From an uncultured Dehalococcoidales bacterium (GTDB lineage Bacteria; Chloroflexota; Dehalococcoidia; Lucifugimonadales; Lucifugimonadaceae): a stretch of 36,735 nucleotides of DNA. Each line of letters opens with the position of its first letter. The first letter of the stretch is position 1. Positions 2,279 to 33,728 of this stretch are shown piece by piece. The notes under the pieces were generated by a model. That model worked only from the letters and a program-made list of their open reading frames with translations. It was not told the DNA's origin and did no database searches. Where the stretch lies: the NCBI GenBank assembly GCA_964471055.1, contig CAYYFS010000002.1, forward strand, positions 2,233 to 38,967, given 5' to 3'. The translations under genes were made by a program, and so were the position numbers.

Positions 2279-2281
2279 TTC

Positions 2282-13615: not shown

Positions 13616-13627
13616 GGCGGCCTAGAC

Positions 13628-15598: not shown

Positions 15599-16389
15599 CC
15601 ACGACGATAGCGGTGGCAGGCAAGGGTGGGACCGGCAAGACAACGATCGCAGCGATGCTGATCAAGCTTCTGGCCGGGAAAGGCACCGTGCTGGCAATCG
15701 ACGCGGACCCGAGCGTCAACCTGCACATGGCCCTGGGCCTCGAGGAACCGGAGGCCATCGGCAGCATCCGCGAGGAGATCGCGACCGAAGGCGACGACCT
15801 GCCGGCGGGGATGACCCGGCACGACTACATGGCGTTCCGTTCCCGCCAGGCGGTGATGGAATCCACCGGACTCGACCTGCTCGTCATGGGAAGGCCGGAG
15901 GGGCCGGGATGCTACTGCGCCTCCAATCACGTTCTGCGAACGGCCATCGATCGCATGACGGACGCCTACGACCACGTTGTTATCGACAACGAGGCGGGCA
16001 TGGAGCACATCAGCAGGCGGACCACCAGAGACCTGCAGGCACTTCTGCTCGTGTCCGACCCAACCGTGCGGGGCATAACGGCGGCCGGACGGGCGCAGGC
16101 GCTGCTGCACGACCTCCGGACGCATGTCGACACCGTGGGGCTGGTGGTCAACCGCGTGGATGGAGAGCTGCATCCGGAACTCAGGAAGACGGTAGATGCA
16201 CAGGAGCTCCGGCTGCTGGCCACTATCCCTTCCGACCCCCTCGTGGGCGAACTGGATGCCGTGGGGCGGCCGCTGGTGGAACTACCATCCAACTCGCCGG
16301 TACGAGAGGCCGTGGACCGGCTGGCACATGAACTCGGGTTCGTAACGCGGGAGGGGGCGGCTGGAGCCGGATCTCCGTCCGCCCGCTGA
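15595..16389 (+). CDS. acsF: CooC/AcsF-family Ni-insertion ATPase, copy 2
   Basis: 264-aa ORF. AGKGGTGKTT Walker A and GPGCYCASN CxC motif. Its ATG overlaps the acsV stop by 4 nt (ATGA). Confidence 0.85.
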   Translation: MTTTIAVAGKGGTGKTTIAAMLIKLLAGKGTVLAIDADPSVNLHMALGLEEPEAIGSIREEIATEGDDLPAGMTRHDYMAFRSRQAVMESTGLDLLVMGRPEGPGCYCASNHVLRTAIDRMTDAYDHVVIDNEAGMEHISRRTTRDLQALLLVSDPTVRGITAAGRAQALLHDLRTHVDTVGLVVNRVDGELHPELRKTVDAQELRLLATIPSDPLVGELDAVGRPLVELPSNSPVREAVDRLAHELGFVTREGAAGAGSPSAR

Positions 16390-16427
16390 AGACAAAGCAA
16401 TCGACCGAGAAGCTAGGAGCGTGCTCA

Positions 16428-17348
16428 ATGATCGTCATCGGAGAATCGATCCACGTCATTGCCCCGAGGGTCAGGGCGGCACTGGAGAACCGGGACGCGC
16501 GCACGCTGCAGGACATGGCTGTTAGCCAGGTCGAGGCGGGCGCCGGAATAGTCGACCTGAACATCGGCCCGCAGAGGCGACAGGGCCACGAGATCATGCC
16601 CTGGTTGGTGGACATCCTGCAGGAAGTTGTGGACGTACCTTTCAGCCTGGACACGACCAACGCAGCCGCCATTGAGGCCGGCCTCAAGCGGTGCAAACAC
16701 AGGGCCCTGATCAACAGCACGGACGCCACCGAGGAACGCATGGCGGCGATGGTGCCGCTGGCCGCGAAATACGAGGCAGACCTCATCGCGCTCGCACTGG
16801 GTGACTCAGGCCTGCCGACCACTGCGGAGGAACGACTGGAACTCGTGATGGGCAGGCTGCTCCCCGCCGCCGAGGAGCACGGCCTCCCAATCGAGAACCT
16901 GTACCTGGACCCGTTGGTGCTCACTGTGAACGGCATGCAGGACCAGGCCATCCAGACGGTGATGGCGGTGCATTACTTCAAAGAGCTTTCCGACCCGCCC
17001 CCAAAGACAACCGCCGGTCTGTCAAACGTGTCCAACGGGACTCCCGCAGAAGGCCGTCCTCTCATCAATGAAGTGTTCGCCGCGATGATGATCGGCGCCG
17101 GAATCGTCTCCGCCATCGCCAACGCCCTTGACGAAGGCACGATGAACGTCATCAGGACGATCGATCAACGGGATACGTCCACGGCTCAAGGGCGCCTGTA
17201 CGTGGCGCTGGCAGATACCGTCGGTACCGGCGAAGAGTTCGAGGTGGAACCCTCGATGCTGGAAGACCCGGAAACCAGCGACATAGCCAAAACCATCAAC
17301 ATCCTGTACGACCGCCAGATCTACGCGCCGTCATACCTCACCCTGTAG
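16428..17348 (+). CDS. acsE: Methyltetrahydrofolate:corrinoid iron-sulfur protein methyltransferase
   Basis: 306-aa ORF with a pterin-binding TIM-barrel pattern (IIGESIHV..., VDLNIGP, SLDT, GLSNVS). SD AGGAG. Confidence 0.9.
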   Translation: MIVIGESIHVIAPRVRAALENRDARTLQDMAVSQVEAGAGIVDLNIGPQRRQGHEIMPWLVDILQEVVDVPFSLDTTNAAAIEAGLKRCKHRALINSTDATEERMAAMVPLAAKYEADLIALALGDSGLPTTAEERLELVMGRLLPAAEEHGLPIENLYLDPLVLTVNGMQDQAIQTVMAVHYFKELSDPPPKTTAGLSNVSNGTPAEGRPLINEVFAAMMIGAGIVSAIANALDEGTMNVIRTIDQRDTSTAQGRLYVALADTVGTGEEFEVEPSMLEDPETSDIAKTINILYDRQIYAPSYLTL

Positions 17349-20332: not shown

Positions 20333-20420
20333 TTACCGGACGGCGGGGACGCCTGCGGGGCATTTCCGGCGCAAGAAACGCTCAGGAGGAGCGGGGGATC
20401 CGAGCCTACGGCCGGGGGAC

Positions 20421-23375
20421 CTAGCGCCGCGTCGCGGCCGCCTCACTCACCGCACCCAGCACGACCTCCACGGCTACGGACGTCCCGTCGGCCTCTCGCC
20501 TGACACTCACGCGCGCCTCGCGCCCCACCTCCGGCGCTCCCACGATTCGGGTGCCGTCGGTCACGACGAATGCGACGCCCTCTATCGTCCAGACGTTTCC
20601 TGCAATGGAGCGGACAACGCCGGACACCAGAACCGTTCCGTCCGCGGCATCGCTCGATCCCGGCTTGACGTTGATCGGTCTGCGCTCGGGATTCTCGCTT
20701 GGCTTGCCGGCGACACTCACCGCCAGGGCTGTGAACGCGCCGTCTTCGCCGGCCCGCAGTGCAGCCTTCGCCACCAGGCCGGGTTCCGGTTCCTCTCCGA
20801 AGAACTGTGTGGCCTTCGTGACGACGAATTCTCTGCCGCCGATGACCCACCTGTCGCCGTCGATCAGTTCAATCACCCCGGATATCGTCGTCTCAACCGG
20901 GCCCGGCATTGCGACAGGCGTGCGCCCGGACGTGTACGGCTCCTGGCTGTTCGTGACGGCCTCCACCACCCGGCGTCCGGACAGCACATGTAATCCCAGT
21001 GCACTGATTTGACCAGGCTCTTCCTCCGCATACAGCGCCGCAGCCACCGTATCCCCAGCCTCGATTCCCGCCAGAGATCCCACCAACCTGCCGTTCAGAC
21101 GGATTTCGGCGTCCCCGGCTGTCACCATCCGCACGGTGTCGCCATCGGAACTCACCACTGCCAGCGCGCCGGCCACGGGATCGACGCTGCTCACGACGCC
21201 GCGTATGCGTTCCGCGCCGGGTGTCACAACTGTCAGTCGTGCGAGCGCGCCCGTGCCCGGCTCGTAGGCCGCCGATTCCACTATGTCGCCGATCTCGATG
21301 CTCTCAAGTCCGTTCGTCTGCCGGCCGTCTTTGAACACCGCCACGCGGGAGGCGGGGTCGGACACGAACAGCTTGACGGGCTGTTCCCGGTCTGGATCGT
21401 CAACCATGATCCGACCCGCCCCGTTGTGTACCTCGTCCAGCAGAACGACGACACCGCGGAGGCCATCGATCTCCGGCGGTGCGACGGCCAACTCTGTCGC
21501 CACGTTGAAGGCCAGCCCGTCCGTGTCGACCGGCCGATACTGTCCCGCCACGACCCGATCACCCACCTGGAGGTCGCTGAGCAGCACGGCGCGGTCTTCT
21601 GGGCCATCCAGCTCAGTGTCTTCTGTCACCCGCACCGTGGTCGTTCCGCCATTGTCCAGGCGCACTGTCACCCGGCCGGCGGCCTCGTTCACACCGGCGA
21701 CCGTGCCGGCCAGGTTCACGCTTTCGAGCGAACTAACCACCAGCCTGTTCACGACTCGCGTCTCAGGATCGAAGCTGGAAGCGCCCAGCACCAGGTCGTC
21801 CGAGCCCACTTCTGACAGGCCGACGTCTTGCCCGTTTCGTGTAATCCCTGCATCCGGTGCGATTCGCAGCTCCACGGGTTCGCCACTCACCGGAGCGACC
21901 AGGATGCTCCTCCCTTCCGTGTCCAGGCGCCTCACGACGCCGGACAGGTGTGCCTCCGGCCGTTCCTCCAAGCTGACGCGGAGTTGCGTCGCGGTCACAC
22001 CGTCTCCGGTGAGCCACACCTCCGCGCGCTGCCCGGCGGCCAGCTTGCCGACATCCGCAGGCTCACCGTCAAGGCTGATCTTCGTGCCGGGCCTCACATT
22101 GGCGGCGACTTTCGTTCCTTCGGCCACGTCTGCCACGATCACGACCCCGTCCACGCCGGCCAACCCAGACCCCACGTCGACAAGCGTGATCGATCCGTAG
22201 AACACCTGCGGACTCTCCGCCGCCACTGCGGCGGCGACCGCTCCGGGAAGTTGCGGTGGCCGGATGCTGACGCGAACAGCTCTCGGTGGCCCGTCTACCG
22301 GCGGCTCCGCGACATCCGCTGCCGTGGTCAGCACGCTCACCCGGCGACCCTCGCTCAGCAAATCGAAAGGAGTGGCGGCGGACGAAAGCGCCGTCTCGAT
22401 CTCCGTGGCCGCGGTCAAGAGGAATTGTCGCTCCACTCCCGAGTGGCTCAGTCTCACCGACAGCACATCCCCGGACAGGCCCGTGACGACTCCACCGTCC
22501 TCAATGCCCGGCGTTTCGGTGCCGGCGTTCAGGGCGGTCCTCGCGTATTCCTGCCCGAAGCGAGCGACAGCGGCCACCACCTGCGCTCCCGTCTCGGCGC
22601 TCACGTTCGCCAGAGCCTCGTTCAGCGCTGTCAGATGCCGCGTGCCGTTTCTCTCGATCAGCGTCTGGATCTCGCGCTTCTTTGCCGGATCCTCCACTCG
22701 TTCGAGCGCGGACTCCAGCCGTTTCACCGTTCTTTCGGCCCGTTCGAGGGCCTTCACCATCAGGCTGTTCGTGCGCTCATCTCGTCGCGCCACCGCGGTG
22801 ATCATTTCGCCGACGGCGGGCTCTTCAAGCGCCACCGGCCATTCGAGCGTCACCGTGTTGCCATTGCGGTCCGTGACCTCGATCCGGGCGTCTCCGACCC
22901 CGGTCACAACACCCACGACGTGAAGGTACGACGCCCCTCCCTCCTTCGGGCGCACAATCACGCTCTGGCCGATCAGCGTGCCCTCAGCCCCGCGCTCGGC
23001 TGTCGCTACGATGCGGTCTGCTTCCGCAACCCCGTCCAGCGTCGTTTCGGCGTCTCCTGCCTTCAGGGTCGTGCCGGCCTGGATTTCCAGCGCCACGACT
23101 CCGTCGTCAGTGGCAAGCCAGATGACCCCTCCAGCTTCGCCCGCGGAGACCCTGAGCACCGTACCGAACACGGCCTCAAGCGTGGCGAGCCCATCCGCCC
23201 GCACCGCGGCCGACGTGGGCAGCATCAGAACGCCCAGAAGCAAGAGGACACCGGCTGCCAGCGCCGCTCTCACACAGATCTTGTGCATGGCCATCTTGCG
23301 CGTCATCAGTACCTGTCGCAGCCCCGATATGCGACTACGGGACCGCACATACTCATCCATCTTCAACCTAGCCAT
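20421..23375 (-). CDS. Large exported repeat protein: signal peptide or anchor plus about 10 DUF5666-like beta modules and one helical insert. Function unknown.
   Basis: 984-aa ORF. Hydrophobic segment RAALAAGVLLLLGVLMLPTSAAVRA/DG. Recurring roughly 70-90-aa units begin G[VT]V..[VLI] (GVVTGVGDARIEVTD, GVVTGLSGDVLSV, SGVVRRLDTEGRS, AGTVAGVNEAAGRVTV, RGVVVLLDEV, RGVVSSVDPVAG, SGVIELIDGDRWVIGG, SGVVRSIAGNVWTIEG). The true start may be an internal ATG at 23306, 23294 or 23288. Confidence 0.8.
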   Translation of the reverse strand: MARLKMDEYVRSRSRISGLRQVLMTRKMAMHKICVRAALAAGVLLLLGVLMLPTSAAVRADGLATLEAVFGTVLRVSAGEAGGVIWLATDDGVVALEIQAGTTLKAGDAETTLDGVAEADRIVATAERGAEGTLIGQSVIVRPKEGGASYLHVVGVVTGVGDARIEVTDRNGNTVTLEWPVALEEPAVGEMITAVARRDERTNSLMVKALERAERTVKRLESALERVEDPAKKREIQTLIERNGTRHLTALNEALANVSAETGAQVVAAVARFGQEYARTALNAGTETPGIEDGGVVTGLSGDVLSVRLSHSGVERQFLLTAATEIETALSSAATPFDLLSEGRRVSVLTTAADVAEPPVDGPPRAVRVSIRPPQLPGAVAAAVAAESPQVFYGSITLVDVGSGLAGVDGVVIVADVAEGTKVAANVRPGTKISLDGEPADVGKLAAGQRAEVWLTGDGVTATQLRVSLEERPEAHLSGVVRRLDTEGRSILVAPVSGEPVELRIAPDAGITRNGQDVGLSEVGSDDLVLGASSFDPETRVVNRLVVSSLESVNLAGTVAGVNEAAGRVTVRLDNGGTTTVRVTEDTELDGPEDRAVLLSDLQVGDRVVAGQYRPVDTDGLAFNVATELAVAPPEIDGLRGVVVLLDEVHNGAGRIMVDDPDREQPVKLFVSDPASRVAVFKDGRQTNGLESIEIGDIVESAAYEPGTGALARLTVVTPGAERIRGVVSSVDPVAGALAVVSSDGDTVRMVTAGDAEIRLNGRLVGSLAGIEAGDTVAAALYAEEEPGQISALGLHVLSGRRVVEAVTNSQEPYTSGRTPVAMPGPVETTISGVIELIDGDRWVIGGREFVVTKATQFFGEEPEPGLVAKAALRAGEDGAFTALAVSVAGKPSENPERRPINVKPGSSDAADGTVLVSGVVRSIAGNVWTIEGVAFVVTDGTRIVGAPEVGREARVSVRREADGTSVAVEVVLGAVSEAAATRR

Positions 23376-23413
23376 ACCGTCATTACCGTTGTGTTACTGC
23401 ACCAGTTCCACGC

Positions 23414-24001
23414 TCAGGGTGACGATTCCGGCAGTGACACGACGGCGAGAGTCTTTCTCTCCTCGTTTCCTTCGAGATCGCTCGCGACAACCTCAATCAG
23501 GTTCGGTCCCGGATCGAGCGTGAGCAGGACCTCGAAGCTCCCACTTTCGTCGATCGGGATGACGACACCGTTGATGCTCAGGAGGGCATCGGGAGTGGTG
23601 CGCCCCCGGGCCACAACTGTGTCGCCGCGCACCACGCTCTCCTCGGTCAGACCCTCTATTTCCAGATACAGGCCGTACTGCTGCACCGGCGGATCAGCGG
23701 GGGTGATCACCGGCCAGGGAGCTGAAGTGGCTGTCGGCGCTGGGGTCAACGTGCCTGAAGGCGCTATCGTCGAGGTCGGCGCTTCCGTGGGCCCGGGTGT
23801 GACACTAGCCGAAGTCACCGTAGCGGCCGCGGTCGCCGTCGGGACCTGTGTCGTCGGCCGGGGTGTGGCCTCTGGCTGCTGACTGGAGGCGACGCTCGGC
23901 GTCGGCGATTCGGCGACTCGTTCGACGGTACGGAAGCACCCGACCGCGAACGCACCTGCCACCAGTACTAGTACCAGTCCGAGCACTCTCCGCCGGGTCA
24001 T
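23414..24001 (-). CDS. Putative lipoprotein with Pro/Thr-rich linker and C-terminal Ig-like beta-sandwich domain
   Basis: 195-aa ORF. MTRRRVLGLVLVLVAGAFAVGC has a positive n-region and lipobox A-V-G-C. An approximately 90-aa P/T/A/S-rich linker follows. C-terminus: VVRGDTVVARGRTTPDALLSINGVVIPIDESGSFEVLLTLDPGPNLIEVVASDLEGNE. GAGG about 9 nt before the ATG. Confidence 0.75.
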   Translation of the reverse strand: MTRRRVLGLVLVLVAGAFAVGCFRTVERVAESPTPSVASSQQPEATPRPTTQVPTATAAATVTSASVTPGPTEAPTSTIAPSGTLTPAPTATSAPWPVITPADPPVQQYGLYLEIEGLTEESVVRGDTVVARGRTTPDALLSINGVVIPIDESGSFEVLLTLDPGPNLIEVVASDLEGNEERKTLAVVSLPESSP

Positions 24002-24094
24002 GCTGGGAACCTCGCGTGCCGGACCGCGGGCGTGGACCGGCAGTGACAGGGCTCAAGCACCGGGGCTGCGTCTCCATCTATCCGTTCCACGGGG

Positions 24095-25075
24095 CTACTG
24101 TGGCCCGCCGACCGGATCACTTCTCATCGGGACCACGAGGGTGAATGCCGTGTGCTTTCCCGCTTCCGGCGACGCGGCACCGTCCACGGTCAATTCCCCC
24201 CCGCACCGCCTGGCGAGCATTTGCGCGATGAAGAGGCCGAGCCCCGAAGAGGCCCGTTCAGTTCGGCCGGCTACCTCCGGCGTCCAACCCCGATCGAAGA
24301 CGTGGGGCACGTACCCCTGCGGGATGCCGGGGCCGTCATCCCAGACCCGCACCGAGAAGCTCTCCGGGTCGCGGGTCAGCCTTACCGCCACCTCCGTCTC
24401 CGCGAACCGGACCGCGTTGTCAACCAGGTTCGTGACGATGTGGTCGATCGCCCCTGCGTCCGAATAGACGACGCCGAATTCCGCCGGTTCAGACCACCAG
24501 GAAAGCTCCGTCCCCCGCTCCGCGGCCACGCCACGGTAGCGGTCGGCCACGTTCCGCACCACCTGTGCCGGATCCACCGGATCGCGTCGTGGGGTCTGCT
24601 CCGCCTCCTCCAGCTCCACCAGCACCTGGACATTGGACACCATCAACCTGAAGCTGGGCGCCTGTCGCTCGATTTCATCAAGCAGATCAGCCACCGCCGG
24701 CTCGACATCCCGCCCCGACTCGTCCAGTCGGGCCCGCACTTCGCGCTCCTTGCCCAGAATCCGACGGAAGGGCCGACCCAGGTCGTGCCCGAACATCTCA
24801 AAGTACTCCTGGGTGACCCGGCTCCACTTCCGCATCGTCTCGCCCGCGACCCGCTCGCCGGCGCCTCTCATCTCCAGTGCAAAGGCCGTCAGCCCGACCG
24901 CGAGTCCGGCAACCACCGCAACCACGCCCAGGTACGCCAGCGGCTCAACCTGCCACTTGAACGACGGGAACAGGGTCTCTCCTATGAAGGGCGCGAGGAC
25001 GATCGCCACCACCCCGAGTGTGGCGGCCGCGATCCCCGCGTACCTGGCCACCCTGAGCCAGTCGCCAACTCTCAC
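24095..25075 (-). CDS. Sensor histidine kinase, minimal intramembrane type (2 TM helices, about 13-aa outer loop, no HAMP or PAS)
   Basis: 326-aa ORF. TM1 about aa 12-31, TM2 about aa 45-67. H-box FGHDLGRPF (His97), N-box NLVDNAVRFA, G1 DDGPGIP, G2 GLGLFIAQ. GTG start with GGGGAG 6 nt upstream. Confidence 0.9.
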   Translation of the reverse strand: MRVGDWLRVARYAGIAAATLGVVAIVLAPFIGETLFPSFKWQVEPLAYLGVVAVVAGLAVGLTAFALEMRGAGERVAGETMRKWSRVTQEYFEMFGHDLGRPFRRILGKEREVRARLDESGRDVEPAVADLLDEIERQAPSFRLMVSNVQVLVELEEAEQTPRRDPVDPAQVVRNVADRYRGVAAERGTELSWWSEPAEFGVVYSDAGAIDHIVTNLVDNAVRFAETEVAVRLTRDPESFSVRVWDDGPGIPQGYVPHVFDRGWTPEVAGRTERASSGLGLFIAQMLARRCGGELTVDGAASPEAGKHTAFTLVVPMRSDPVGGPQ

Positions 25076-25224
25076 GCCTATCTCCCCGCTACCGGCTGTC
25101 CCGACCGCGTCGCGCGGCCCGAAGACCGGACCCTACCGTACCCGGTGCACCGTCTCATACGGCTTCACCCCCGACATCGCAAGGCCCGCGCCCAACTGTT
25201 CTCCCTGCCGGTCCAAAGTCGACG

Positions 25225-26016
25225 CTACACCGGATCACGCGGCGGGACCAGACGATAGCCGCTGCCGCGAACGTTGACTATCAGTTCATTCGCCCCGAAG
25301 CGCCTGCCGAGCGCCTCGCCCATGGCGTCCTTGATCTCACGGATGCGCACTCGAAGGGAAGCGCGAGAATCCTCTCCACCGGAGAACCGTTCAAGTCGTG
25401 AGAACGGCACCAGCTCACCTTCGCTTCGATACAGAGTGGCAGCCAATTCGTGGAGTATCTCGTACTTCATGCCCTGGATCTCCCGAACCGGTCGGTTTTC
25501 GCCACCCACCCTGGCGTAGAGCACGCGATTGTCCGCGTCCAGTGAGAAGTACGGCCCGATAGTCATCGCGGACGGCGATCTGCCGATGAGACGGCGCAGC
25601 CGCAGGACCACTTCATCCGGGCTCGCCAGCTTGTCGATGAAATCCACCGGAGCGTCCACGCTCAAGCTTCCAGTCACCGCCGTGTCCCGATACGGGCCTT
25701 CTGCATACTGCGTGAACACCAGCACCGGCAGTTTCGGGGCCTTCTGCACGATCCGTCGAAGGATGGACAGGCCCTTGAATCGATCATCCGGGTGGTCTCC
25801 GAAGCGGACGTCTAGCAGAACGGCCGCCGGCCTCTGCTCGTCGACCTGGTAGAGGGCTTCCGCTTCGAAATCATCGCCCGTCACGTGTGGGCCTTCTGGT
25901 TGCACCACATCCACGATGAACCCCTCCCGGCGTAGACGGCGAAGCACGGATCGCATCAGGTCAGAGCCCGCCTCGTCATCCACAACCAGGATTCTCTCCG
26001 GATACAGCTCGGTCAC
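25225..26016 (-). CDS. OmpR/PhoB-family response regulator (receiver plus winged-helix DNA-binding domain)
   Basis: Receiver residues ILVVDDE, VLLDVRF, VLVFTQ, DFIDKL. C-terminal wHTH ...RVRIREIKDAM...LIVNVRGSGYRLV. The GTG at 26016 (GAGGAA 9 nt upstream) is preferred. The ORF track extends to the ATG at 26103, adding a 29-aa Arg/Thr/Gly-rich tail. Confidence 0.88.
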   Translation of the reverse strand: MTELYPERILVVDDEAGSDLMRSVLRRLRREGFIVDVVQPEGPHVTGDDFEAEALYQVDEQRPAAVLLDVRFGDHPDDRFKGLSILRRIVQKAPKLPVLVFTQYAEGPYRDTAVTGSLSVDAPVDFIDKLASPDEVVLRLRRLIGRSPSAMTIGPYFSLDADNRVLYARVGGENRPVREIQGMKYEILHELAATLYRSEGELVPFSRLERFSGGEDSRASLRVRIREIKDAMGEALGRRFGANELIVNVRGSGYRLVPPRDPV

Positions 26017-26498
26017 GGCAGCATTCCTCGCGCGCCCTGTCTTCCGGGTTCCGCCCGTATCGGTGCGTCTGTCTCGCGTTCCCGGCTCGGTGCCGCGCCG
26101 CATGCCACCGCTGACTTCGGCTCTGCTCTCGCGCTCATCCCGACCATCCCTCCCCAGCCCGGCCTCACCACGTTCCCCACCTCCGGCGCGCTGTTCCCCG
26201 TGAATCAGGCAAGTTTAGCGTCCCTCCACGGCCGGAATGTGGCCGAGTCTGGTGCTGCCAATCGCACCGGCACGCGCCAGACCCCAATCCCTTGTGATTG
26301 ACTCACGCATAACCGCAACATCTCGTCTGGCAATCAACCCTGCAACGCCCTCGACGCGGTGCCCGCAGCCACGCTATAGTCCGGGACAGCCTTCTGTCGA
26401 CGGACCCCGCGTCCTGTCGGCCCCCAACCGAAGCAGACAGCCCCGGGCCATCCGCCGTTCGCGGGTTCCGGCGGACCGCCCGGCAGTCCATACACGCC

Positions 26499-29400
26499 GT
26501 GTTCGTTCATCTTCACAACCATTCCGAGTACAGCCTCCTCGACGGCTTGAGTCGCGTTGACGGCATGGCCCGACGCGCGGCCGAACTGGGCCAGCCGGCG
26601 ATAGCGCTCACGGACCACGGCAATCTCTACGGCATCATCGATTTCTATCGCGCCGCCAGAGATGCGGGCGTGAAGCCGATCCTGGGTTGCGAGGCCTACG
26701 TCGCACCCGGCGACCGCCGCGACCGCGGAGGCGCCGGCCGCTCACCTCACCACCTTGCACTCCTGGCGCAAGACGAGACCGGCTACCAGAACCTGCTGAA
26801 GCTCATCTCTCGTTCACACCTGGAGGGTTTCTACTACCGTCCCCGGGCCGACCGAGCACTCCTCGAGGAGTACAGCGAAGGCCTTATCGCCCTGTCCGCA
26901 TGCCCCTCCGGTGAGGTGCCGCGGCTTCTTGCATCGGGGCGCATGGACGACGCGCGGAGCGTCGTCGATTGGTACCGCACGGTTTTCGAAGGCCGGTATT
27001 ACCTGGAGTTGATGCACCACGAGGGAGTGCCCGAGCAGCCGGTCATCAACAAGGGCCTCGTGGAACTCGCTCGCGAGACAGGTCTTCCGCTCGTTGCCAC
27101 AAACGACTCACACTACATCTCGCGGGAGGACGCCCCGTTCGCGGAAATCCTGACGTGCATACAGACCAACACCACCCTCAACGATCCGAAGCGGCTCCGG
27201 CTGGAAGACGATTCCTACTACATCAAGAGCGAAGAGGAGATGGCGGCCAGATGGGGTGAGGCACCCGAGGCACTCGCCAACACGGTGCGCATCGCGGAAC
27301 AGTGCAACGTTGAGATTCCGTTCGGCGAGACTCACGTCCCTCGATATCCGACTCGGGATGGACAGACTGCACACCAGTACCTGGCGGAGCTGTGCGAGAA
27401 GGGTCTGCGAAGGCGATACCCGAACGCACCTGCCGAGGTGGAAGCACGCCTCAGGTACGAACTGGACGTCATAAGGCAGACCGACTTCGCAGATTACTTC
27501 CTGGTGGTCTGGGATATCTTCCGCTTCGTCAATGAGCGCCACATCCTGTCCGCGGTCCGGGGCAGTGCGGCGGCAAGCCTGGTCCTGTACTGCCTCGATG
27601 TCACTCAGATCGATCCGCTCGCCACACGTCTTGTCTTCGAGCGTTTCCTGAACGTGGAGCGTAAGGAGATGCCGGACATAGACATGGATTTTCAAGATGA
27701 CCGCCGGGCGGAGGTCATCCACTACTGCGTGGAACGGTACGGTCGCGCGCATGTCGCCCAGATCATCACGTTTGGCACCCTCGGCGCCAAGGCCGCGGTG
27801 AGGGATGTCGGCCGCGCCCAGGGCGTGGACCTGGCGGAAGTGGACCGCATCGCCCGCCTCATACCCCAGCGGCTTGGCATGACCCTGGATGCCGCTCTGT
27901 CTGAGAGTACGGAACTCAAAGTCCTTGCGGAATCCACCCCGCAGAACCAGGAACTCATCCGAGCAGCGCGGCGCCTGGAAGGGAACGTCCGGCACGCCAG
28001 CACACATGCCGCCGGTCTCATCATTTCTGAAGACCCCCTGGTAGATGTCGTGCCTCTTCAGAGGCCGATCAAAGGCGACGAAGACGATCCGCCCATGACG
28101 GAATACGCCATGGGACCCCTTGCTGACCTCGGCCTGCTCAAGATGGACTTCCTGGGCCTCACCAACCTGACGGTGCTTGACAAAACCGTCAAACTCATCC
28201 GCGCCCACCGGGGCGAGCACCTGGCTCTCGATACGGTACCGCTGGATGACGCCGATACCTTCGAACTGCTCGGCGCCGCGGACACCTGGGGTGTGTTCCA
28301 GCTCGAAAGCTCGGGCATGCGGCGGAATATCAAGGAACTGAAGCCCACATCCGTGGCCGATGTCTCGGCCATGATCGCCCTCTACCGCCCCGGGCCGATG
28401 GAGCACATCGGCACGTTCATAGCAGCCAAGCACGGCCGCGCTCCCATCCGATACCCGCACCCGGCGTTCAAAGAGATCCTGGAGGAGACGTACGGAGTCA
28501 TCGTCTACCAGGACCAGGTTCTCCTGATCGCCCAGGAGTTCGGCGGCTACACGCTCGGCGAAGCGGACGTCCTGCGCAAGGCCATGGGTAAGAAGATCCC
28601 GGAGGTCATGGCCGCCGAACGGGAGAAGTTCATCTCCGGCGCCCGGGCAAAGGGCTACACACAGGAATTGACGGCTACCATCTTCGAGCTGATAGAGCCC
28701 TTTGCCGGGTACGCCTTCAACAAGGCCCACTCCGTCAGCTACGCGATGATCGCCTACTGGACCGCGTACTTCAAAGCGAACTACCCGGTCGAGTACATGG
28801 TTTCAATCCTGGATGCTTCGGCCGGCCACCCCGACAAGCTGGCTGACGGTATCCGGGAAGCCCGTCGGATCCGAATCAGAATTCTGCCTCCCGACGTCAA
28901 CCGCAGCCTCGCAGGCTTCACTATCGAGGACCAGGAGGACGGCAACCAGGCTATCCGCTTCGGCCTGGCGACCGTGAAGAACGTGGGCGAGCTCGCCGTG
29001 CAGCCCATCATCGAAGCCCGGGACGCGGGCGGACCGTTCGAGTCCATCGAGGACTACTGCCGGCGCGTCGACTTCAGAGGGCTCAACCGGCGCACTCTGG
29101 AGAGCCTGGTCAAAGCCGGTGCGCTGGACGCCTTCGGAAGCCGGGCGGCGCTTCTGGAGGCCTGCGAGCGGATTGTCTCGGCGGCGCAACGTGAGGCACG
29201 CCTCCGAGACTCCGGGCAGACCACCATGTTCGACATGTTCGGGGACTCCGTCGACAGCCCTATGCCCGCCATCGAACTGCCTGAGTCGGAAGAGGTCACT
29301 GCTCGCGAGCGCTCCATCTGGGAGCGAGACCTGCTCGGCGTCGAGATCAGCGAAGGGCCGTTCTCGCGAGAGATGTACGCCCAGGCAGACAACTTCGTGG

Positions 29401-30245
29401 TGTTCTCCAACCAGATCACCGCTGAGAACGCGGGGCAGAAGAAGTCCGCGCTCGGCCAGATCTCCGGGGTGCAGGAGCGTCTGACCCGCAAGGGCGAGCG
29501 CTTCTTCTCCGTGAATCTGACGCTTCTGGACGGAGATCTTGAGGTCGTGGTGTGGCCCGACCTGGTGGAGTCGACAGGGCCTCTCTGGAAAGAAGGGCGG
29601 TTCGTCGCAGTGGCCGGACGCGTACGGGACAGGGACGGACGCATCTCTCTGGCAGCGGCCGAGGCTCGCGAATATCGCCTGCCGGGCGACGATCCCGGAG
29701 GCCCCGCAGACCCGCCGATCTCGGGTGCCGCTGCGGCACCGGACAACGTACAGATCGAAGGCAACGGCACTCCCGCTGAGGAACTCGTGACGGACGGCAT
29801 GGAAAACGACGGAATTCTCTCTCCTGAAGACGGGACTCAAAGCGCCAACGGGTCGCCGGTTGAGCCGGCGGTCTCACTCGGACCCTCGAACGGGGACGGC
29901 GGCGCGCAGATTGCCGAAGGGTTCGTCCTACGGCTCAATGAAACGGGCGAGCAGATCGAGGACCGATACCGTCTCGAAGACCTGGTGAAGCTGCTGCTGG
30001 AGTACCGCGGCCCTGATGCCGTCATCCTGGAGGTGGAAACCCGGGACCGGCTCGTTCGGCTCGACATGCCGTTCGTGACAGTTGCCGCCTGTCCGGAGCT
30101 GGAGAACAGGCTCGTGGAGATGCTTGGCCGCGGGTCGGTGAGCCTCGCCGGCAACGGCGGGTCCGACGACGGCGCGCAACCGGCCGACACCGGGGATGCC
30201 ACTGCACGCACAACGGGCGATACCGAAACGGTCCACCCGTCCTGA
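26499..30245 (+). CDS. dnaE: DNA polymerase III alpha subunit
   Basis: 1248-aa ORF. PHP domain FVHLHNHSEYSLLDG, palm/fingers motifs (PDIDMDF, HAAG, GLLKMDFLGL, FNKAHS), OB-fold region, then a low-complexity linker and C-terminal domain. GTG start. Confidence 0.95.
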   Translation: MFVHLHNHSEYSLLDGLSRVDGMARRAAELGQPAIALTDHGNLYGIIDFYRAARDAGVKPILGCEAYVAPGDRRDRGGAGRSPHHLALLAQDETGYQNLLKLISRSHLEGFYYRPRADRALLEEYSEGLIALSACPSGEVPRLLASGRMDDARSVVDWYRTVFEGRYYLELMHHEGVPEQPVINKGLVELARETGLPLVATNDSHYISREDAPFAEILTCIQTNTTLNDPKRLRLEDDSYYIKSEEEMAARWGEAPEALANTVRIAEQCNVEIPFGETHVPRYPTRDGQTAHQYLAELCEKGLRRRYPNAPAEVEARLRYELDVIRQTDFADYFLVVWDIFRFVNERHILSAVRGSAAASLVLYCLDVTQIDPLATRLVFERFLNVERKEMPDIDMDFQDDRRAEVIHYCVERYGRAHVAQIITFGTLGAKAAVRDVGRAQGVDLAEVDRIARLIPQRLGMTLDAALSESTELKVLAESTPQNQELIRAARRLEGNVRHASTHAAGLIISEDPLVDVVPLQRPIKGDEDDPPMTEYAMGPLADLGLLKMDFLGLTNLTVLDKTVKLIRAHRGEHLALDTVPLDDADTFELLGAADTWGVFQLESSGMRRNIKELKPTSVADVSAMIALYRPGPMEHIGTFIAAKHGRAPIRYPHPAFKEILEETYGVIVYQDQVLLIAQEFGGYTLGEADVLRKAMGKKIPEVMAAEREKFISGARAKGYTQELTATIFELIEPFAGYAFNKAHSVSYAMIAYWTAYFKANYPVEYMVSILDASAGHPDKLADGIREARRIRIRILPPDVNRSLAGFTIEDQEDGNQAIRFGLATVKNVGELAVQPIIEARDAGGPFESIEDYCRRVDFRGLNRRTLESLVKAGALDAFGSRAALLEACERIVSAAQREARLRDSGQTTMFDMFGDSVDSPMPAIELPESEEVTARERSIWERDLLGVEISEGPFSREMYAQADNFVVFSNQITAENAGQKKSALGQISGVQERLTRKGERFFSVNLTLLDGDLEVVVWPDLVESTGPLWKEGRFVAVAGRVRDRDGRISLAAAEAREYRLPGDDPGGPADPPISGAAAAPDNVQIEGNGTPAEELVTDGMENDGILSPEDGTQSANGSPVEPAVSLGPSNGDGGAQIAEGFVLRLNETGEQIEDRYRLEDLVKLLLEYRGPDAVILEVETRDRLVRLDMPFVTVAACPELENRLVEMLGRGSVSLAGNGGSDDGAQPADTGDATARTTGDTETVHPS

Positions 30246-30576: not shown

Positions 30577-31089
30577 CTACTTGCCTCTGGCTTCCAGTGC
30601 GAGTAGCCGCCTCTTCATCTCCACACCCGAGCTGCTATTGAACCCGTGCGGCGTCCCATCGGAGGCCACGACACGGTGGCACGGTACTACCAGGGCCAGC
30701 CGGTTTCGCGCCATCGCCTGGCCCGCTGCCCGGGATGCCAGCGGATTTCCTGCAGCGGCAGCGAGCCACCTGTACGACCGCGTTTCACCAGCCGGAATCG
30801 ACCGGCAAGCCTCCCACGCCCGCCTGTAGAACGGCGGGGCGTCGACAAGATCCAGAGGGATCGTGGCGAGGTCGGAATCCTCGCCGCTCAGGTAGGCACA
30901 CACGCGCTGGCGAACCCAGTCCACTGCTGCCTCATCCGATTCCACACCGTCCAGCTCGTAGCCCAACCTCTGCTCCGCCGCGTCCGGGGTCGGCTCTGGT
31001 GCCGTCAACCTCCGCAGACCCGCCGGAGACACCACTGCGGCCACCCAGCCGAGTTTCGTCTGGAACACCCCGTACTTCAGATCGCTCAT
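30577..31089 (-). CDS. ogt: Methylated-DNA--protein-cysteine methyltransferase (MGMT/Ogt)
   Basis: 170-aa ORF. Active site VVPCHRVV, IPAGETRSYRWLA, GNPLASRAAGQA. Its ATG overlaps the stop of the upstream transglutaminase-like gene (ATGA). Confidence 0.9.
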   Translation of the reverse strand: MSDLKYGVFQTKLGWVAAVVSPAGLRRLTAPEPTPDAAEQRLGYELDGVESDEAAVDWVRQRVCAYLSGEDSDLATIPLDLVDAPPFYRRAWEACRSIPAGETRSYRWLAAAAGNPLASRAAGQAMARNRLALVVPCHRVVASDGTPHGFNSSSGVEMKRRLLALEARGK

Positions 31090-33728
31090 GGCCGAGATTC
31101 CTCCTGGGCTGCCCGCTCTCCGGCGGCGATTGACCTATGGCCGGGCACCAGCGTCCGCAGCCGCCACTTCACCATCCCGCGCCCGACCGTCCGCCACGCC
31201 CTCTTGAGCGCCGCGGTCGTTTCGTGTGACTCATCCGACCGGCCGTATGTGCGGGCTTCGTATCCGGCGACGATCGCCCCAACCGCCTGAGCAAGATGTG
31301 GTGCCGCTCCGGTCAGCAAGCCGGCGTACTCCGAGGATGTATAGTGCTCCGGCCGGCCGATTCCAAGCAGCGTACCCAGACGTGTCATCTGTGTATAGGT
31401 GTGTTCGGCAGTCGGTAGACCTCGAAGGCTCCATCTCCACACCAGCCACACCAGGAGCGGGAATCCCAACGTTCCTGAGAGCGCGCCCGCGAGCGCTACG
31501 ACCCACCATCCAACGGCCGCCGGGTCAGCTCCGGCCCCCACCGCTCCCCTGGCCTGTCGCACGAACTCCCCGAGGTCCTCAAGATCCTCTTCGTACAGGA
31601 GCTGGTCCTCCTCGCCGGAAGGGAGGCCGAAGTAGAGCAGGGGGCGGTTCAGTTGCGGCACCGGTAGTCCGCGAACGTGTTCGGCGACGCCGGGCGTGGC
31701 CTCGACGTCGATCCAACCGTAGCGCGGGAAGAACACCTGCGACCAACCGTGACGGTCCGTGCCCCGCACAACGAACCCTTCGGTCGGCGACACGTATTCA
31801 CCCGGCGCGTACCCGGCAACCATGCGGGCCGGCACACCCACGGAGCGCAGCAGGACCGTCGCGGCCGATCCGAAGTACTGGCTGTACCCCTTCGCGCTGG
31901 TCTCATCGCAGTCGGGCGCATCCGAGGGACAGGGCTCATCCACGGTGTCGAACAGGAAGTAGTCAATCGCATCCTGGCCCCGAGCCGGGCCTTCGATCTG
32001 TTGGCTGTAGACAAATGATCTGAGGTATTGGATCACGGCGCCCGTCTTCTCGAATGGAGTCGCCGCGCCCGCGCGCAAGACGATTCGCTCCGCGAGGCGC
32101 CGCACGCGAACCGGAAGCGTAGAAGGTAGCTGGAGGTAGCGGTCTTCCACCCACGCCGGGTAGTCGATCCCGGCTGCCATCAGTTCTTCGTCCGATACCG
32201 TCGACACCAGGGTAGATATTCTGTAGGAGTCATCCGCATCCACCGGTGTCGCCAATCGCACGTTCACCTGCGCGGCGGGCTCTTCCTCCGCATGCAGCAC
32301 CGAGACGGCCACCAGCTCGCCGTCGCCGTCCAGCGACGCTCGCCAGGTCAGGCCCTCCGAGGGGATCTCACGAAGGGCAGCCAGGGCGTCTTGGGGGGGG
32401 CGCGGCGCGTAGACGAACGCCTCTCGCACCCGCTCTCCGAACGTACGTACGTCTTCCGGAAGCGACCGGCTCAGCCTTCTCCGCCTGAGGTTAATCTCAA
32501 ACTCCATCGCCTGCATCGTCTGCACGCGTACCTCGCGGTCGGCCTCCGCCAGCAGTCCCCCTGGCGAGACCTGGTCTGTCGGGAACAGCGGTTGCACGAG
32601 CTGATCGACGTACTCCAGGTTCTCGTAGGGCGGCTCAGCCGGCCAGACCGGCGAATGCTCCGGTACGGTGGTTTCCTCCGTTGCGCTGTTGACCCACCCG
32701 CCGGGCGTGTACGTGCCGTACACCCGGCCAACGTGGTACGTCGGATAGTCGGACCAGATCCGCATCACGGGATCCTCTGGCAGGTTGATTGCGCCGAAGA
32801 ATGGCAGCGCGTCCCCAAACGGCTTGAGCGGACCCGCCTCACGGCCCTTGATGCCCGACAGGAGCCTCGAGGCCGGCTCGCGAAGCGCTTCGACCGGGGA
32901 CCGGACCGTCATCCAGACCTCTCGCACAGATGTCGAATGAGGCTCCCACAGCGGCATGACGACAGCTACTACCACGACCAGCGGGCCGAACAGCACCGCG
33001 TCCCGAACGCTTAGCCACCGGATGCTCGGGGGGAACGCCGTTCCGGCAGCGCGCCACCTCGCCATCCTCCGTACTGTCGTCACGTGCACGAACAATGCGA
33101 TGGAGGCGAGCACGAAGAAGAAGAACGTGTATTCGAATTGATGCAGCCGATAGCTCAGGCTCGTCAGAATCGACAGGCCGAGCAGTATCACCGCAGGCCA
33201 CGGACTGCGCCACCGGAACAGGGGCCATGCTGCGGCGTAGCCCACCAGCCACGCCGCACTCAGGAACATCACAGTGAACGGGAGCGTGTCCAGAGAAACG
33301 CCGCCCGAACGAGCTGCTTCCAGCCAGTCCCCGAACCGATACCACGTGTCGAAACCCCGGCCGACCGGACTCGTTCCTTCAGCCCGCAACGATGCCTGCC
33401 ACATGACCATGACAAAGCCGAGAGGCAACGAGACGATGTGACCCACCTGCCACGGCATGCGCGAACGGGCAAGCGTCAGGGCTACTACGCCGGCAACGAA
33501 CAAGGAGGGCAGCACGGACGGCGAATCGCCCCAGTTGGCGAGTTGCAGCGACCATGCCGCCGTGATCGACATGCAGGTGAGGAGGGCCAGGCTCACCCAT
33601 TCCTCAAGCGGCAGACCCAGCATGCGCCCGATGAGCACGCTCGATGCGCCCCCGGCCGGGCCCCGGGCCCTCACGTCGGCTTCACCTGCGCGGTCCAACG
33701 CCACAGCGGTTCCCGTGGATGCGCTCAC
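31086..33728 (-). CDS. Transglutaminase-like multi-pass membrane protein (TgpA-like architecture)
   Basis: 880-aa ORF. N-terminal block of about 6 hydrophobic helices, a large middle domain, transglutaminase-core-like GYSQYFGSAATVLLRSVGVPARMVAGY ... DRHGWSQVFFPRYGWIDVEAT, and a further TM segment (WWVVALAGALSGTLGFPLLVWLVW). Its start overlaps the DUF58 stop by 4 nt. Confidence 0.85.
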   Translation of the reverse strand: MSASTGTAVALDRAGEADVRARGPAGGASSVLIGRMLGLPLEEWVSLALLTCMSITAAWSLQLANWGDSPSVLPSLFVAGVVALTLARSRMPWQVGHIVSLPLGFVMVMWQASLRAEGTSPVGRGFDTWYRFGDWLEAARSGGVSLDTLPFTVMFLSAAWLVGYAAAWPLFRWRSPWPAVILLGLSILTSLSYRLHQFEYTFFFFVLASIALFVHVTTVRRMARWRAAGTAFPPSIRWLSVRDAVLFGPLVVVVAVVMPLWEPHSTSVREVWMTVRSPVEALREPASRLLSGIKGREAGPLKPFGDALPFFGAINLPEDPVMRIWSDYPTYHVGRVYGTYTPGGWVNSATEETTVPEHSPVWPAEPPYENLEYVDQLVQPLFPTDQVSPGGLLAEADREVRVQTMQAMEFEINLRRRRLSRSLPEDVRTFGERVREAFVYAPRPPQDALAALREIPSEGLTWRASLDGDGELVAVSVLHAEEEPAAQVNVRLATPVDADDSYRISTLVSTVSDEELMAAGIDYPAWVEDRYLQLPSTLPVRVRRLAERIVLRAGAATPFEKTGAVIQYLRSFVYSQQIEGPARGQDAIDYFLFDTVDEPCPSDAPDCDETSAKGYSQYFGSAATVLLRSVGVPARMVAGYAPGEYVSPTEGFVVRGTDRHGWSQVFFPRYGWIDVEATPGVAEHVRGLPVPQLNRPLLYFGLPSGEEDQLLYEEDLEDLGEFVRQARGAVGAGADPAAVGWWVVALAGALSGTLGFPLLVWLVWRWSLRGLPTAEHTYTQMTRLGTLLGIGRPEHYTSSEYAGLLTGAAPHLAQAVGAIVAGYEARTYGRSDESHETTAALKRAWRTVGRGMVKWRLRTLVPGHRSIAAGERAAQEESRP

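Follow-up and report, generated by a model that had tools for sequence, protein, structure and literature searches.

The four minus-strand genes at positions 20421 to 26103 of the window (the whole stretch of 36,735 nucleotides analyzed here, from an uncultured Dehalococcoidales bacterium) are a real, uncharacterized cell envelope signaling module of many uncultured Chloroflexota. They encode a canonical phosphorelay, in which a kinase tethered to the membrane by two transmembrane (TM) helices and devoid of a sensor domain is partnered by a divergent regulator of the OmpR/PhoB fold with every phospho-acceptor residue intact, followed directly downstream by two exported proteins, a lipoprotein and a large repeat protein. 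All four open reading frames (ORFs), with gaps of 149 nt (regulator-kinase), 93 nt (kinase-lipoprotein), and 38 nt (lipoprotein-repeat protein) as annotated, exactly match those reported in an earlier sequence-only reading of this DNA, whose descriptions of the genes also held in Pfam and NCBIfam domain searches and in the fold of the regulator. We estimate a probability of roughly 0.5 that the four genes constitute a single operon-level functional unit, specific to Chloroflexota, with an envelope structure as its main local output.

The response regulator is encoded by an ORF of 292 amino acids (25225..26103, minus strand). Its true start is probably the GTG codon at 26016, giving a protein of 263 amino acids, since no conservation is seen over the ORF's first 29 codons and a 263-amino-acid database protein (P0005) is 100% identical to the shorter form. 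The Response_reg model matched with 31.4 bits (cutoff, 30.2) and Trans_reg_C with just 17 bits, under its cutoff of 26.2. When the AF2 model of the protein (pLDDT 83) was submitted to Foldseek, the top 11 full-length matches were all OmpR/PhoB regulators. The OmpR type is thus established by the predicted fold and not by the sequence, which is divergent. The phospho-acceptor Asp is encoded at 25812-25810, and the characteristic DD, D, T, and K residues do not vary among 4 sequences and show full or at least 90% conservation among 44 orthologues. At loci carrying both genes, the regulator shows 67 to 70% identity versus 56 to 64% for DnaE, a degree of conservation that hints at a core role.

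The kinase (24095..25075, minus strand; 326 amino acids) is a minimal membrane histidine kinase of the intramembrane-sensing type, whose geometry we read from the sequence and from an alignment of 11 orthologues. TM1 (approximately residues 13 to 32; 25039-24980) and TM2 (residues 45 to 68; 24943-24872) are joined by an outer loop of 12 amino acids (residues 33 to 44; 24979-24944), and a variable linker (residues 69 to 83; 24871-24827) leads toward the H-box FGHDLGRP, whose His97 (codon 24787-24785) lies ∼28 amino acids past TM2. The domain search returned HATPase_c at 76 bits and no match to HAMP, PAS, or HisKA, even at an E value of ≤1. The two helices, the lack of HAMP and PAS domains, and the distance to the H-box had been recognized correctly in the earlier reading, which gave the loop length as ∼13 amino acids. 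Invariant positions in the alignment include G21, P29, G32, and E44-P45, the last three of which border the outer loop (10 to 13 amino acids among the 11 orthologues), as well as W84-S85..TQ.YF..F.HD.GRP and the N, G1, F, and G2 boxes. The linker between TM2 and the DHp domain, on the other hand, varies from 14 to 19 amino acids with indels, is rich in Gly, Pro, and Ser, and looks disordered; its variable length and composition are hard to square with classical helix-borne transmembrane signaling.

The lipoprotein gene (23414..24001, minus strand) encodes 195 amino acids with a signal peptide and a lipobox (Cys22, codon 23938-23936), a Pro/Thr-rich linker (approximately residues 29 to 105), and a C-terminal Ig-like Glucodextran_B domain (23638-23438; 33.2 bits, cutoff 27). 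Across 11 orthologues, the lipobox Cys is invariant and the C-terminal domain conserved, with a linker of very variable length; the protein at locus L052 carries two Ig domains.

The gene for the large secreted repeat protein (20421..23375, minus strand) has an ORF of 984 amino acids. Translation probably starts at one of Met24 to Met30 (∼23306-23288), as homologues align solely from the signal peptide onward, which would widen the gap to the lipoprotein gene to ∼100 nt. A Sec signal peptide ends at ∼23196, with cleavage between AVRA and DG, and in 12/12 orthologues an AxA signal peptidase site precedes the conserved motif (E/Q)AVFGTV; the cleaved protein has no anchor of its own. The remainder is laid out as two beta-barrels, a three-helix insertion (22739-22524), and ∼8 further small barrels, the last two of which are clear DUF5666 units. 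DUF5666 matched with 52.2 bits (cutoff, 27) in three stretches, the best at 20621-20463, and an iterative HMM found three to four DUF5666-like units per full-length protein and one in forms of 680 amino acids. The AF2 model resembles beads on a string, predicting ∼10 small OB-like beta-barrels and one helical insertion, ∼30 nm in length if extended, although bead count and length are approximate given the low confidence of the model (pLDDT 59, pTM 0.28).

The order regulator, kinase, lipoprotein, repeat protein is kept in all 13 informative contexts of regulator orthologues (the window, L001, L007, L008, L009, L049, L050/51, L052, L053/54, L055/56, L057/58, L059, and L061), which come from Chloroflexota metagenome-assembled genomes and metagenomes of 50 to 69% GC. 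The same order in 13 independent loci places the arrangement beyond chance. In a preset synteny test, homologues of the repeat protein were syntenic with a two-component system across a broad Chloroflexota clade, which supports the earlier view that they form one functional module. Its flanks fall into three or more distinct contexts, and the stop codon of one gene often overlaps the start codon of the next. In most loci dnaE lies upstream of it, and ogt and transglutaminase/DUF58/MoxR genes are likewise syntenic with it in many, whereas in L052 the place of dnaE is taken by a hibernation factor and a transposase; L053 is flanked by glycine cleavage genes and ilvD. Spacing is often tight: the gaps in L007 are 33, 12, and −1 nt, regulator and kinase genes overlap by 4 nt in L052, kinase and lipoprotein genes by 1 nt in L051, and lipoprotein and repeat protein genes by 4 nt in L051, L057, L059, and L061. 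In one Dehalococcoidia sublineage (L002-5, L010, and L011), the lipoprotein gene abuts one for a 680-amino-acid repeat protein and the surrounding ∼6 kb contain no two-component system, which points to the pair of exported proteins as the older core.

In the window, the gaps of 149 and 93 nt are wide for an operon, so that internal promoters are possible. A terminator scan of the minus strand found none in the three gaps between the module genes; a weak terminator-like hairpin (20379..20393, minus strand; 5-bp stem, T-rich tail) 28 nt past the stop of the large gene may mark the operon end, and the sole other such site on this strand (23265-23247) falls within the 5′ end of the large gene. The module promoter presumably resides in the stretch that separates the regulator gene from dnaE (26104..26498); dnaE starts at 26499 on the plus strand, and most related loci share this divergent arrangement. 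The intergenic stretch had no RNA family match, and a k-mer search of eight upstream regions yielded no shared motif beyond shuffled controls.

Taken as a functional unit, the module could work as follows. The kinase would report on the state of the membrane or envelope, and the regulator would activate transcription of its own operon, making the lipoprotein-repeat protein complex the main local output. In this complex, the Ig domain of the lipoprotein would anchor the repeat protein on the cell surface, forming a long tethered envelope structure; such tethering is suggested by the fact that the two genes always occur together, that they often overlap by 4 nt at start and stop, and that they persist without an adjacent two-component system. 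The complex may also feed back on the kinase via the conserved residues at the borders of its short outer loop. A point against this interpretation is that the conservation of the regulator beyond that of DnaE suggests a regulon much wider than two neighboring genes.

Less probable, in our view, is the sensory-partner reading of the original proposal, in which the lipoprotein, the repeat protein, or both provide signal input to the sensor-less kinase, making up a three- or four-component envelope-monitoring system. The kinase fits the definition of an intramembrane-sensing kinase, a class that often depends on accessory proteins according to the reviews as quoted in PMC5083920; the accessory genes are always coencoded in the same order, the borders of the kinase loop are invariant, and SaeP/SaeQ-SaeS, LpqB-MtrB, and LiaX-LiaFSR offer precedents. 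However, neither the lipoprotein nor the cleaved secreted protein contains a TM helix that could touch those of the kinase, of which just ∼12 loop residues are exposed, and a conformational signal from outside would find no obviously rigid route through the variable, Gly/Pro/Ser-rich linker to the catalytic core. Together with the occurrence of the pair without an adjacent two-component system, this weakens the case for sensory partners.

That same solitary pair, the wide gaps in the window, and the conservation of the regulator would also fit a merely inherited synteny, with the two-component system as a core housekeeping regulator of Chloroflexota and the pair as an independent structural element of the envelope. 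The shared synteny of dnaE, ogt, and transglutaminase/DUF58/MoxR indeed indicates that genes in this clade generally keep their local order. We nevertheless regard the lack of a direct functional link as unlikely, given that the module is intact where the flanks differ wholly (L052 and L053), that start/stop overlaps join the kinase to the lipoprotein gene and the regulator to the kinase gene, and that all four genes stay together in every informative context even though the repeat protein has diverged to 28 to 35% identity. It is more improbable still that the large protein belongs to a characterized surface class (S-layer protein, adhesin, or CusF-like metal chaperone), which would make the module an ordinary one. 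Its size and export, along with weak, subthreshold CusF_Ec and GroES-like matches, are compatible with such a class; yet, as had been anticipated, it matched no S-layer or adhesin family in Pfam or NCBIfam and no PDB sequence better than an E value of 0.15. Foldseek returned only generic tandem OB-fold proteins at a probability of ∼1.0 (Unr CSDs, Mpa OB domains, and HIN), and our literature search on DUF5666 found no functional literature. The orthologues contain zero to two Cys and few His or Met residues and hence no CusF-type Met/His site.

The claim that the module has no characterized counterpart was too strong, as it is well established that two-component systems can come with a coencoded lipoprotein or with exported accessory proteins (PMC5083920, PMC5845573, PMC6936494). 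SaePQRS, MtrAB-LpqB, and LiaFSR-LiaX are analogues in design, none of them homologous in the accessory proteins, and the novelty lies in the protein families and the phylum rather than in the design. SaePQRS of Staphylococcus aureus is a four-gene, autoregulated locus with an OmpR family regulator, in which the lipoprotein SaeP (146 amino acids, without similarity to proteins of known function) and the four-TM membrane protein SaeQ act on SaeS, an intramembrane-sensing kinase with two TM helices, a HAMP domain, and a 9-amino-acid outer loop that SaeP is expected to touch (PMC5083920). Gene number, regulator type, the two-TM, short-loop kinase (9 versus 12 amino acids), and the coencoded lipoprotein plus second auxiliary protein are shared with the Chloroflexota module, for which autoregulation would be a further likeness; action of the auxiliary proteins on the kinase is a feature of Sae. 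The differences, apart from the phylum, are the absence of HAMP, a cleaved secreted beta-barrel protein of ∼950 amino acids in place of SaeQ, a lipoprotein with a Pro/Thr tether and a Glucodextran_B domain, and accessory genes that come last instead of first.

The enterococcal protein LiaX, surface exposed or released, is controlled by LiaFSR as an output and in turn modulates it (PMC6936494). The likeness here is a kinase without a real outer sensing domain and an exported protein that co-occurs with the two-component system, the dual role being a feature of LiaX, which shows no relationship to DUF5666 proteins. In LiaFSR, the regulator LiaR is of the NarL type, the kinase LiaS carries a HAMP domain, and LiaF acts as an inhibitor in the membrane; all three of these features are absent from the Chloroflexota module. 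BceRS-BceAB of Firmicutes pairs an OmpR-type regulator with the same minimal type of kinase (two TM helices, short loop, no HAMP or PAS), but its defining ABC transporter, BceAB, is absent from the window and all related loci, and a continuous helix couples TM2 to the DHp domain in BceS where the Chloroflexota kinase has a disordered-looking linker. Periplasmic BOF/OB-fold proteins controlled by two-component systems, namely, YgiW/VisP with QseBC and VCA0732 with VC1638-39 (PMC5636140), are similarly exported, small OB-fold proteins that form the main or adjacent target of an envelope stress system; they are, however, single-domain BOF family proteins of ∼130 amino acids, in contrast to a chain of ∼10 domains that includes DUF5666 and is paired with a dedicated lipoprotein.

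MtrAB-LpqB of Actinobacteria shares with the module the order regulator, kinase, lipoprotein, an OmpR-type regulator, and wide conservation. MtrB differs in carrying both a true extracellular domain and a HAMP domain. The Chloroflexota kinase scores 78 bits against the MtrB model (cutoff, 450), through its catalytic domain only, the profile of the regulator matches MtrA in the receiver domain only (E value of ∼1e−3), and the domain search found no LpqB-type domain in the module. In Actinobacteria, the LpqB lipoprotein interacts with MtrB and lowers its activity, and the operon is highly conserved across the whole phylum, with a core role in the cell envelope and division (PMC5845573). A comparable core envelope or division role would be in keeping with how very strongly the Chloroflexota regulator is conserved.

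Four minus-strand ORFs called in the window encode a response regulator (25225-26103), a histidine kinase (24095-25075), a predicted lipoprotein (23414-24001), and a large repeat protein of 984 amino acids (20421-23375), separated by gaps of 149, 93, and 38 nt, just as given in the sequence-only reading. We refer to these genes as the module and to the regulator and kinase as its two-component system (TCS). No terminator-like site was found between the module genes in the window, and a weak one lies 28 nt past the large gene. Rfam gave no match above the gathering threshold in the 149-nt gap or in a 395-nt gap, so structured RNA was rejected, and the NCBIfam search assigned none of the four proteins to a named equivalog. 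The true regulator start is most likely the GTG at 26016, giving a protein of 263 amino acids, since this form is identical to a database protein (P0005) and the 29 extra N-terminal codons of the ORF are not conserved. For the large protein, the start is probably at Met24-30, given that its homologs all align only from the signal peptide onward.

The module is flanked by housekeeping genes, with FolC and FabF on one side and DnaE, Ogt, and a transglutaminase/DUF58/MoxR group on the other. Base composition is uniform over the region, and horizontal transfer or a genomic island was ruled out because the GC content and skew of the module are the same as those of its flanks; a role in antiphage defense was ruled out by the lack of a PADLOC match. 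The block at 30577-36261 (minus strand), which encodes an Ogt-like DNA-binding domain protein, a transglutaminase/DUF4129 protein (880 amino acids), a DUF58 protein, and a MoxR AAA ATPase, also flanks dnaE in the related loci L049 to L051, L055, and L057. Elsewhere in the window, positions 377-17348 hold a complete-looking gene cluster for the carbonyl branch of the Wood-Ljungdahl pathway, including NuoF/NuoE-like subunits (377-2743, minus strand), formate-tetrahydrofolate ligase (3683-5374, minus strand), CODH (6913-8886), the ACS beta subunit (8943-11216), two CdhD/CFeSP subunits (11248-13606), a RACo activator (13628-15598), a pterin-binding methyltransferase (16428-17348), and two CooC-like ATPases within the same interval. 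The sole RNA gene detected in the window is a tRNA-Val (TAC) at 36327-36403 on the minus strand.

A relative of the large protein at 58% identity (L001) is encoded together with the other three module genes, and their order is unchanged. Scanning one genome per species with the large protein gave five loci, all from metagenome-assembled genomes (MAGs) of Chloroflexota, and tblastn recovered the full module in three of them, namely, a Dehalococcoidia MAG (L007), a Chloroflexota MAG (L008), and a Thermoflexus MAG (L009, which ends at contig ends on both sides), whose large proteins are only 34 to 35% identical to that of the window. We also inspected the genomic neighborhoods of nine regulators. 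Eight carry, in order, the regulator, a kinase of 302 to 338 amino acids, a Glucodextran_B protein, and a protein of 746 to 1,268 amino acids, the lipoprotein gene of L050 being uncalled but detected by tblastn; in the ninth (L060), regulator and kinase are followed by a third ORF that overlaps the kinase end and is broken by the contig end. Together with the window, the loci reached from the large protein and from the regulator make 13 informative contexts, and all of them carry the whole module. The sequence-only reading had staked the module on homologs of the repeat protein being syntenic with a TCS in other genomes, and on this point it survived.

In most loci, but not all, dnaE lies divergently upstream of the module: a hibernation factor and a transposase take its place in L052, and L053 is flanked by glycine cleavage genes and ilvD. 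The gaps shrink to 33, 12, and -1 nt in L007, start/stop overlaps of 1 to 4 nt occur in several loci, and GC content ranges from 50% to 69% among the module loci. Given these varying flanks, the tight packing, and the GC range, the conservation goes far beyond chance or a simple inherited neighborhood and argues for the four genes being a functional unit. The module is confirmed as real, and its conservation among Chloroflexota is wide. Between dnaE and the regulator, some loci carry a gene for an RDD-family membrane protein that is divergent from the module (L007:6355-7047, L055:7284-7976, L057:7013-7795, and L061:5651-6706) and is absent from the window. One module-bearing MAG (L049; GCA_017114025.1, JAFITW010000004.1) is labeled Dehalococcoides mccartyi, a species label that may be unreliable, since the gene order resembles that of the Dehalococcoidia metagenome contigs L050 and L051 and the locus has 50% GC.

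The lipoprotein and repeat protein genes also occur as a pair. In a Dehalococcoidia sublineage (L002 to L005, L010:9442-12037, and L011:2599-5353), the lipoprotein gene abuts a gene for a short repeat protein of 680 amino acids, with no two-component genes within ~6 kb; the neighbors there are a GNAT acetyltransferase, CoaE, CbbQ, and GroES/EL. Given that this sublineage keeps the pair with no TCS nearby, the pair is the older, self-sufficient core.

From the sequence alone, the four proteins had been described as an OmpR-type regulator, a minimal kinase with two transmembrane (TM) helices, a short loop, and neither HAMP nor PAS, a predicted lipoprotein with a Pro/Thr linker and an Ig-like domain, and a very large DUF5666-like repeat protein. 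These descriptions were borne out, the first by fold (AlphaFold2 model and Foldseek), those of the kinase and lipoprotein by Pfam and alignments of 11 orthologs, and the last by Pfam; Pfam, NCBIfam, PDB sequences, and Foldseek gave no match of the large protein to a characterized S-layer or adhesin family. In the regulator, the Pfam model Response_reg scored 31.4 bits, just above its cutoff of 30.2, and Trans_reg_C remained subthreshold (17 bits; cutoff, 26.2). The acidic pocket, phospho-acceptor Asp, Thr, and Lys typical of OmpR/PhoB receivers are present: D13, D14, D69, T102, and K129 are invariant among four sequences, and across 44 orthologs D69, T102, and K129 are invariant, with D13/D14 at least 90% conserved. 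A profile search against the PDB matched receiver domains only, with E values of ~1e-4 or weaker, and no match covered the C-terminal effector domain. In an AlphaFold2 model built on the 44 orthologs (pLDDT 83), the effector domain (E150-176, H183-197, H205-211, H217-236, E246-256) has the layout of the OmpR/PhoB winged helix, with a four-stranded sheet, three helices, and a hairpin wing. Foldseek's 11 best full-length matches to this model all belong to the OmpR/PhoB family (256 to 267 columns, probability 1.0) and include M. tuberculosis PhoP, KdpE, PrrA, DrrB, and PmrA. Given the modeled layout and these matches, the OmpR-type label is right by predicted fold, even though the regulator is unusually divergent in sequence.

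A protein search with the regulator returned at least 120 clusters at 64 to 81% identity, and the named ones are from Chloroflexota or Dehalococcoidia; one MAG is labeled Dehalococcoides mccartyi and one short contig Gemmatimonadota. A metagenome scan with the regulator alignment, using the generic receiver motifs [RK]ILVVDDE and PVL[VM]FTQY, gave among the matches listed only unrelated regulators at 23 to 41% identity. To find a regulator-binding motif common to eight loci, we compared 9-mers (one mismatch allowed) from the 330 nt upstream of the regulator with shuffled controls, and none stood out beyond chance. By eye, and with no statistical support, six loci share an extended -10-like element, TGnTAnAGTCG, ~95 to 110 nt upstream of the regulator start (L007:~7190-7205, L008:~7110-7125, L049:~8920-8935, and also L050, L055, and L057), a position that would imply a long 5' leader. 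A similar inspection, likewise with no statistical support, showed the direct repeat GTCGATT-N3-GTCGATT directly downstream of this element in L049 and L050, and the window carries GCTAAACT at 26219-26212 (minus strand) in its place.

The input region of the kinase consists of TM1 (amino acids 13 to 32), a loop (33 to 44), and TM2 (45 to 68), followed by 28 amino acids up to His97, and the outer loop measures 10 to 13 amino acids across 11 orthologs. Pfam at E ≤ 1 matched only HATPase_c families (76 bits), with no HAMP, PAS, or HisKA. Invariant residues at the loop borders (G21, P29, G32, and E44-P45) and an invariant H-box (W84-S85..TQ.YF..F-H97-D.GRP) stand out in the alignment, and the N, G1, F, and G2 boxes downstream of the latter are standard. 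By definition, an intramembrane-sensing kinase has no cytoplasmic sensing domain (PAS, GAF, etc.) between the membrane and DHp. The definition also calls for two TM helices with a linker under ~25 amino acids, too short for a ligand (Mascher 2006/2014, cited in PMC5083920). Judged by its sequence, the kinase fits this definition on both counts. The linker from TM2 to DHp (amino acids 69 to 83; window 24827-24871) is 14 to 19 amino acids long in the 11 orthologs, carries indels, is poorly conserved and rich in Gly, Pro, and Ser, and looks disordered. Such a linker is unusual among transmembrane histidine kinases and would offer no obvious rigid route by which a conformational change at the membrane could reach the catalytic core.

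The lipoprotein has a predicted lipobox, FAVGC, whose Cys is invariant in 11 orthologs. The Pro/Thr linker of these orthologs is highly variable in length, and their C-terminal Ig-like domain, duplicated in 1 of the 11, is well conserved; Glucodextran_B (PF09136; cutoff, 27) scored 33.2 bits in the window, 29.7 bits in L010, and 36.2 bits in L007. In all 12 orthologs of the large protein, a Sec signal peptide bearing an AxA cleavage site precedes a near-invariant mature N terminus, (E/Q)AVFGTV. DUF5666 (PF18914) scored 52.2 bits (cutoff, 27) over three stretches of the large protein. Its AlphaFold2 model is weak (pLDDT 59, pTM 0.28, 4 sequences only) and suggests ~10 small beta-barrels plus one three-helix insertion (amino acids 213 to 284). 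Two C-terminal barrels and one at amino acids 150 to 209 are recognizable as DUF5666 and the remaining ones are divergent, full-length proteins having only 3 to 4 recognizable barrels each. High-probability Foldseek matches were only tandem OB-fold proteins (Unr cold-shock domains, Mpa OB domains, and HIN domains). CusF-like metal binding was rejected as unlikely, since the orthologs contain 0 to 2 Cys and few His or Met. A membrane anchor is absent, and Pfam, NCBIfam, PDB sequences, and Foldseek against the PDB yielded no S-layer or adhesin family, SLH, or other anchor. Word-indexed protein searches, run with the single sequence and with a 4-sequence profile, gave 4 relatives, the profile adding none, and an exhaustive profile search gave 1,075 representatives at E ≤ 1e-3 and 99 at E ≤ 1e-30, which fall into length classes of about 600 to 780 and about 950 to 1,200 amino acids.

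Conservation declines along the module. Where dnaE adjoins it (L007, L008, L049, L050, L055, and L057, compared with window positions 25225-26016 and 26499-30245), the regulator is 67 to 70% identical to that of the window and DnaE 56 to 64%. Over all module loci, identity to the window is 51 to 70% for the kinase, 33 to 70% for the lipoprotein (best aligned segment), and 28 to 58% for the repeat protein. That the regulator exceeds the replicative polymerase in conservation suggests a function that is core and possibly essential, not one in a niche response.

The claim that the module has no characterized counterpart proved overstated. A TCS with coencoded exported or lipoprotein accessory proteins is an already well-known design, shared by SaePQRS, MtrAB-LpqB, LiaFSR-LiaX, and a Vibrio TCS; what is new is an uncharacterized, phylum-specific envelope TCS module with novel accessory proteins. 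LiaS-like kinases have a HAMP domain and an adjacent liaF, whereas the module kinase lacks HAMP and neighbors lipoprotein and repeat-protein genes instead of a gene for a LiaF-type membrane protein. Sensing by the BceS-like subgroup requires a neighboring BceAB-type ABC transporter, but none is encoded in the module, in its immediate window flanks, or next to it in 12 related loci, and the sole ABC gene listed in the related loci is in L052, ~8 kb upstream. The surface protein of LiaFSR-LiaX serves as output and modulator alike (PMC6936494), and the main target of the Vibrio TCS is an exported OB-fold protein (PMC5636140). SaePQRS combines an intramembrane-sensing kinase with a 9-amino-acid loop, a lipoprotein, and a second auxiliary protein (PMC5083920), but SaeS has a HAMP domain, and a gene like that for the 4-TM SaeQ is absent from the module in the window and related loci, so that domains and gene content set the two apart. 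The disordered-looking linker is also unlike those of BceS, LiaS, and SaeS. The lipoprotein LpqB interacts with MtrB and lowers its activity (PMC5845573); in contrast, the module lipoprotein has no LpqB or GerMN match, the NCBIfam MtrB model reaches only 78 bits on the module kinase (cutoff, 450), and MtrA structures match the regulator in the receiver domain only (E ~1e-3). Membership in the named families therefore fails, given the missing HAMP, the missing BceAB-, LiaF-, or SaeQ-type partner, the MtrB score, and the missing LpqB domain.

The module encodes an intact phosphorelay and, downstream of the TCS, two exported proteins, all four genes being linked at the operon level. We propose, with a probability of about 0.5, that it works as an operon-level unit with an anchored complex as its local output and an envelope-reporting kinase. 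The repeat protein, which itself lacks an anchor, would be fixed to the cell surface by the Ig domain of the lipoprotein, and the two proteins would form a long tethered envelope structure. The regulator may autoregulate its own operon, which would make this complex the local output; the kinase would report the state of the membrane or envelope, and the complex could feed back on it via the conserved loop borders.

That the two exported proteins instead serve as the kinase's sensors is plausible, if tentative: such an arrangement has precedent in known systems, but neither partner has a TM segment, the kinase linker looks disordered, and the pair exists without a TCS. Synteny with no functional link between the genes appears unlikely, given that the module is intact in 13 of 13 informative contexts with differing flanks, and it is highly improbable that the large protein belongs to a known class of surface proteins, since none of the databases searched matched it to an S-layer protein or adhesin. 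WalRK-YycHI of Firmicutes and MtrAB-LpqB of Actinobacteria are envelope and cell-cycle TCSs, essential and phylum-wide, and a more speculative, rather doubtful analogy would make the module their Chloroflexota counterpart, a master regulator with its activity set by a long, lipoprotein-tethered chain of OB-like domains. Coupling would then occur by clustering or sequestration rather than through a helix, because the TM2-DHp linker appears disordered, and the chain would gauge, as a physical probe or ruler, how far the outer protein layer stands from the membrane in bacteria whose envelopes are atypical and often poor in peptidoglycan.

The module is the first conserved functional context for two domains whose function is vague or unknown, the Glucodextran_B-type Ig domain and DUF5666, the latter mentioned in the papers examined only in omics tables and with no functional account. 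A kinase on a seemingly disordered tether could reveal how a minimal kinase is controlled when no helix carries the signal through the membrane. Chloroflexota, which include Dehalococcoidia and marine lineages of the SAR202 type, are abundant and matter ecologically but are almost genetically intractable, and their envelopes are poorly understood. Given a regulator that is conserved at 64 to 81% identity across the database clusters listed, exceeds DnaE in identity where the two were compared, and is always followed by the same three genes, the module is a strong candidate for a core envelope homeostasis circuit of Chloroflexota.
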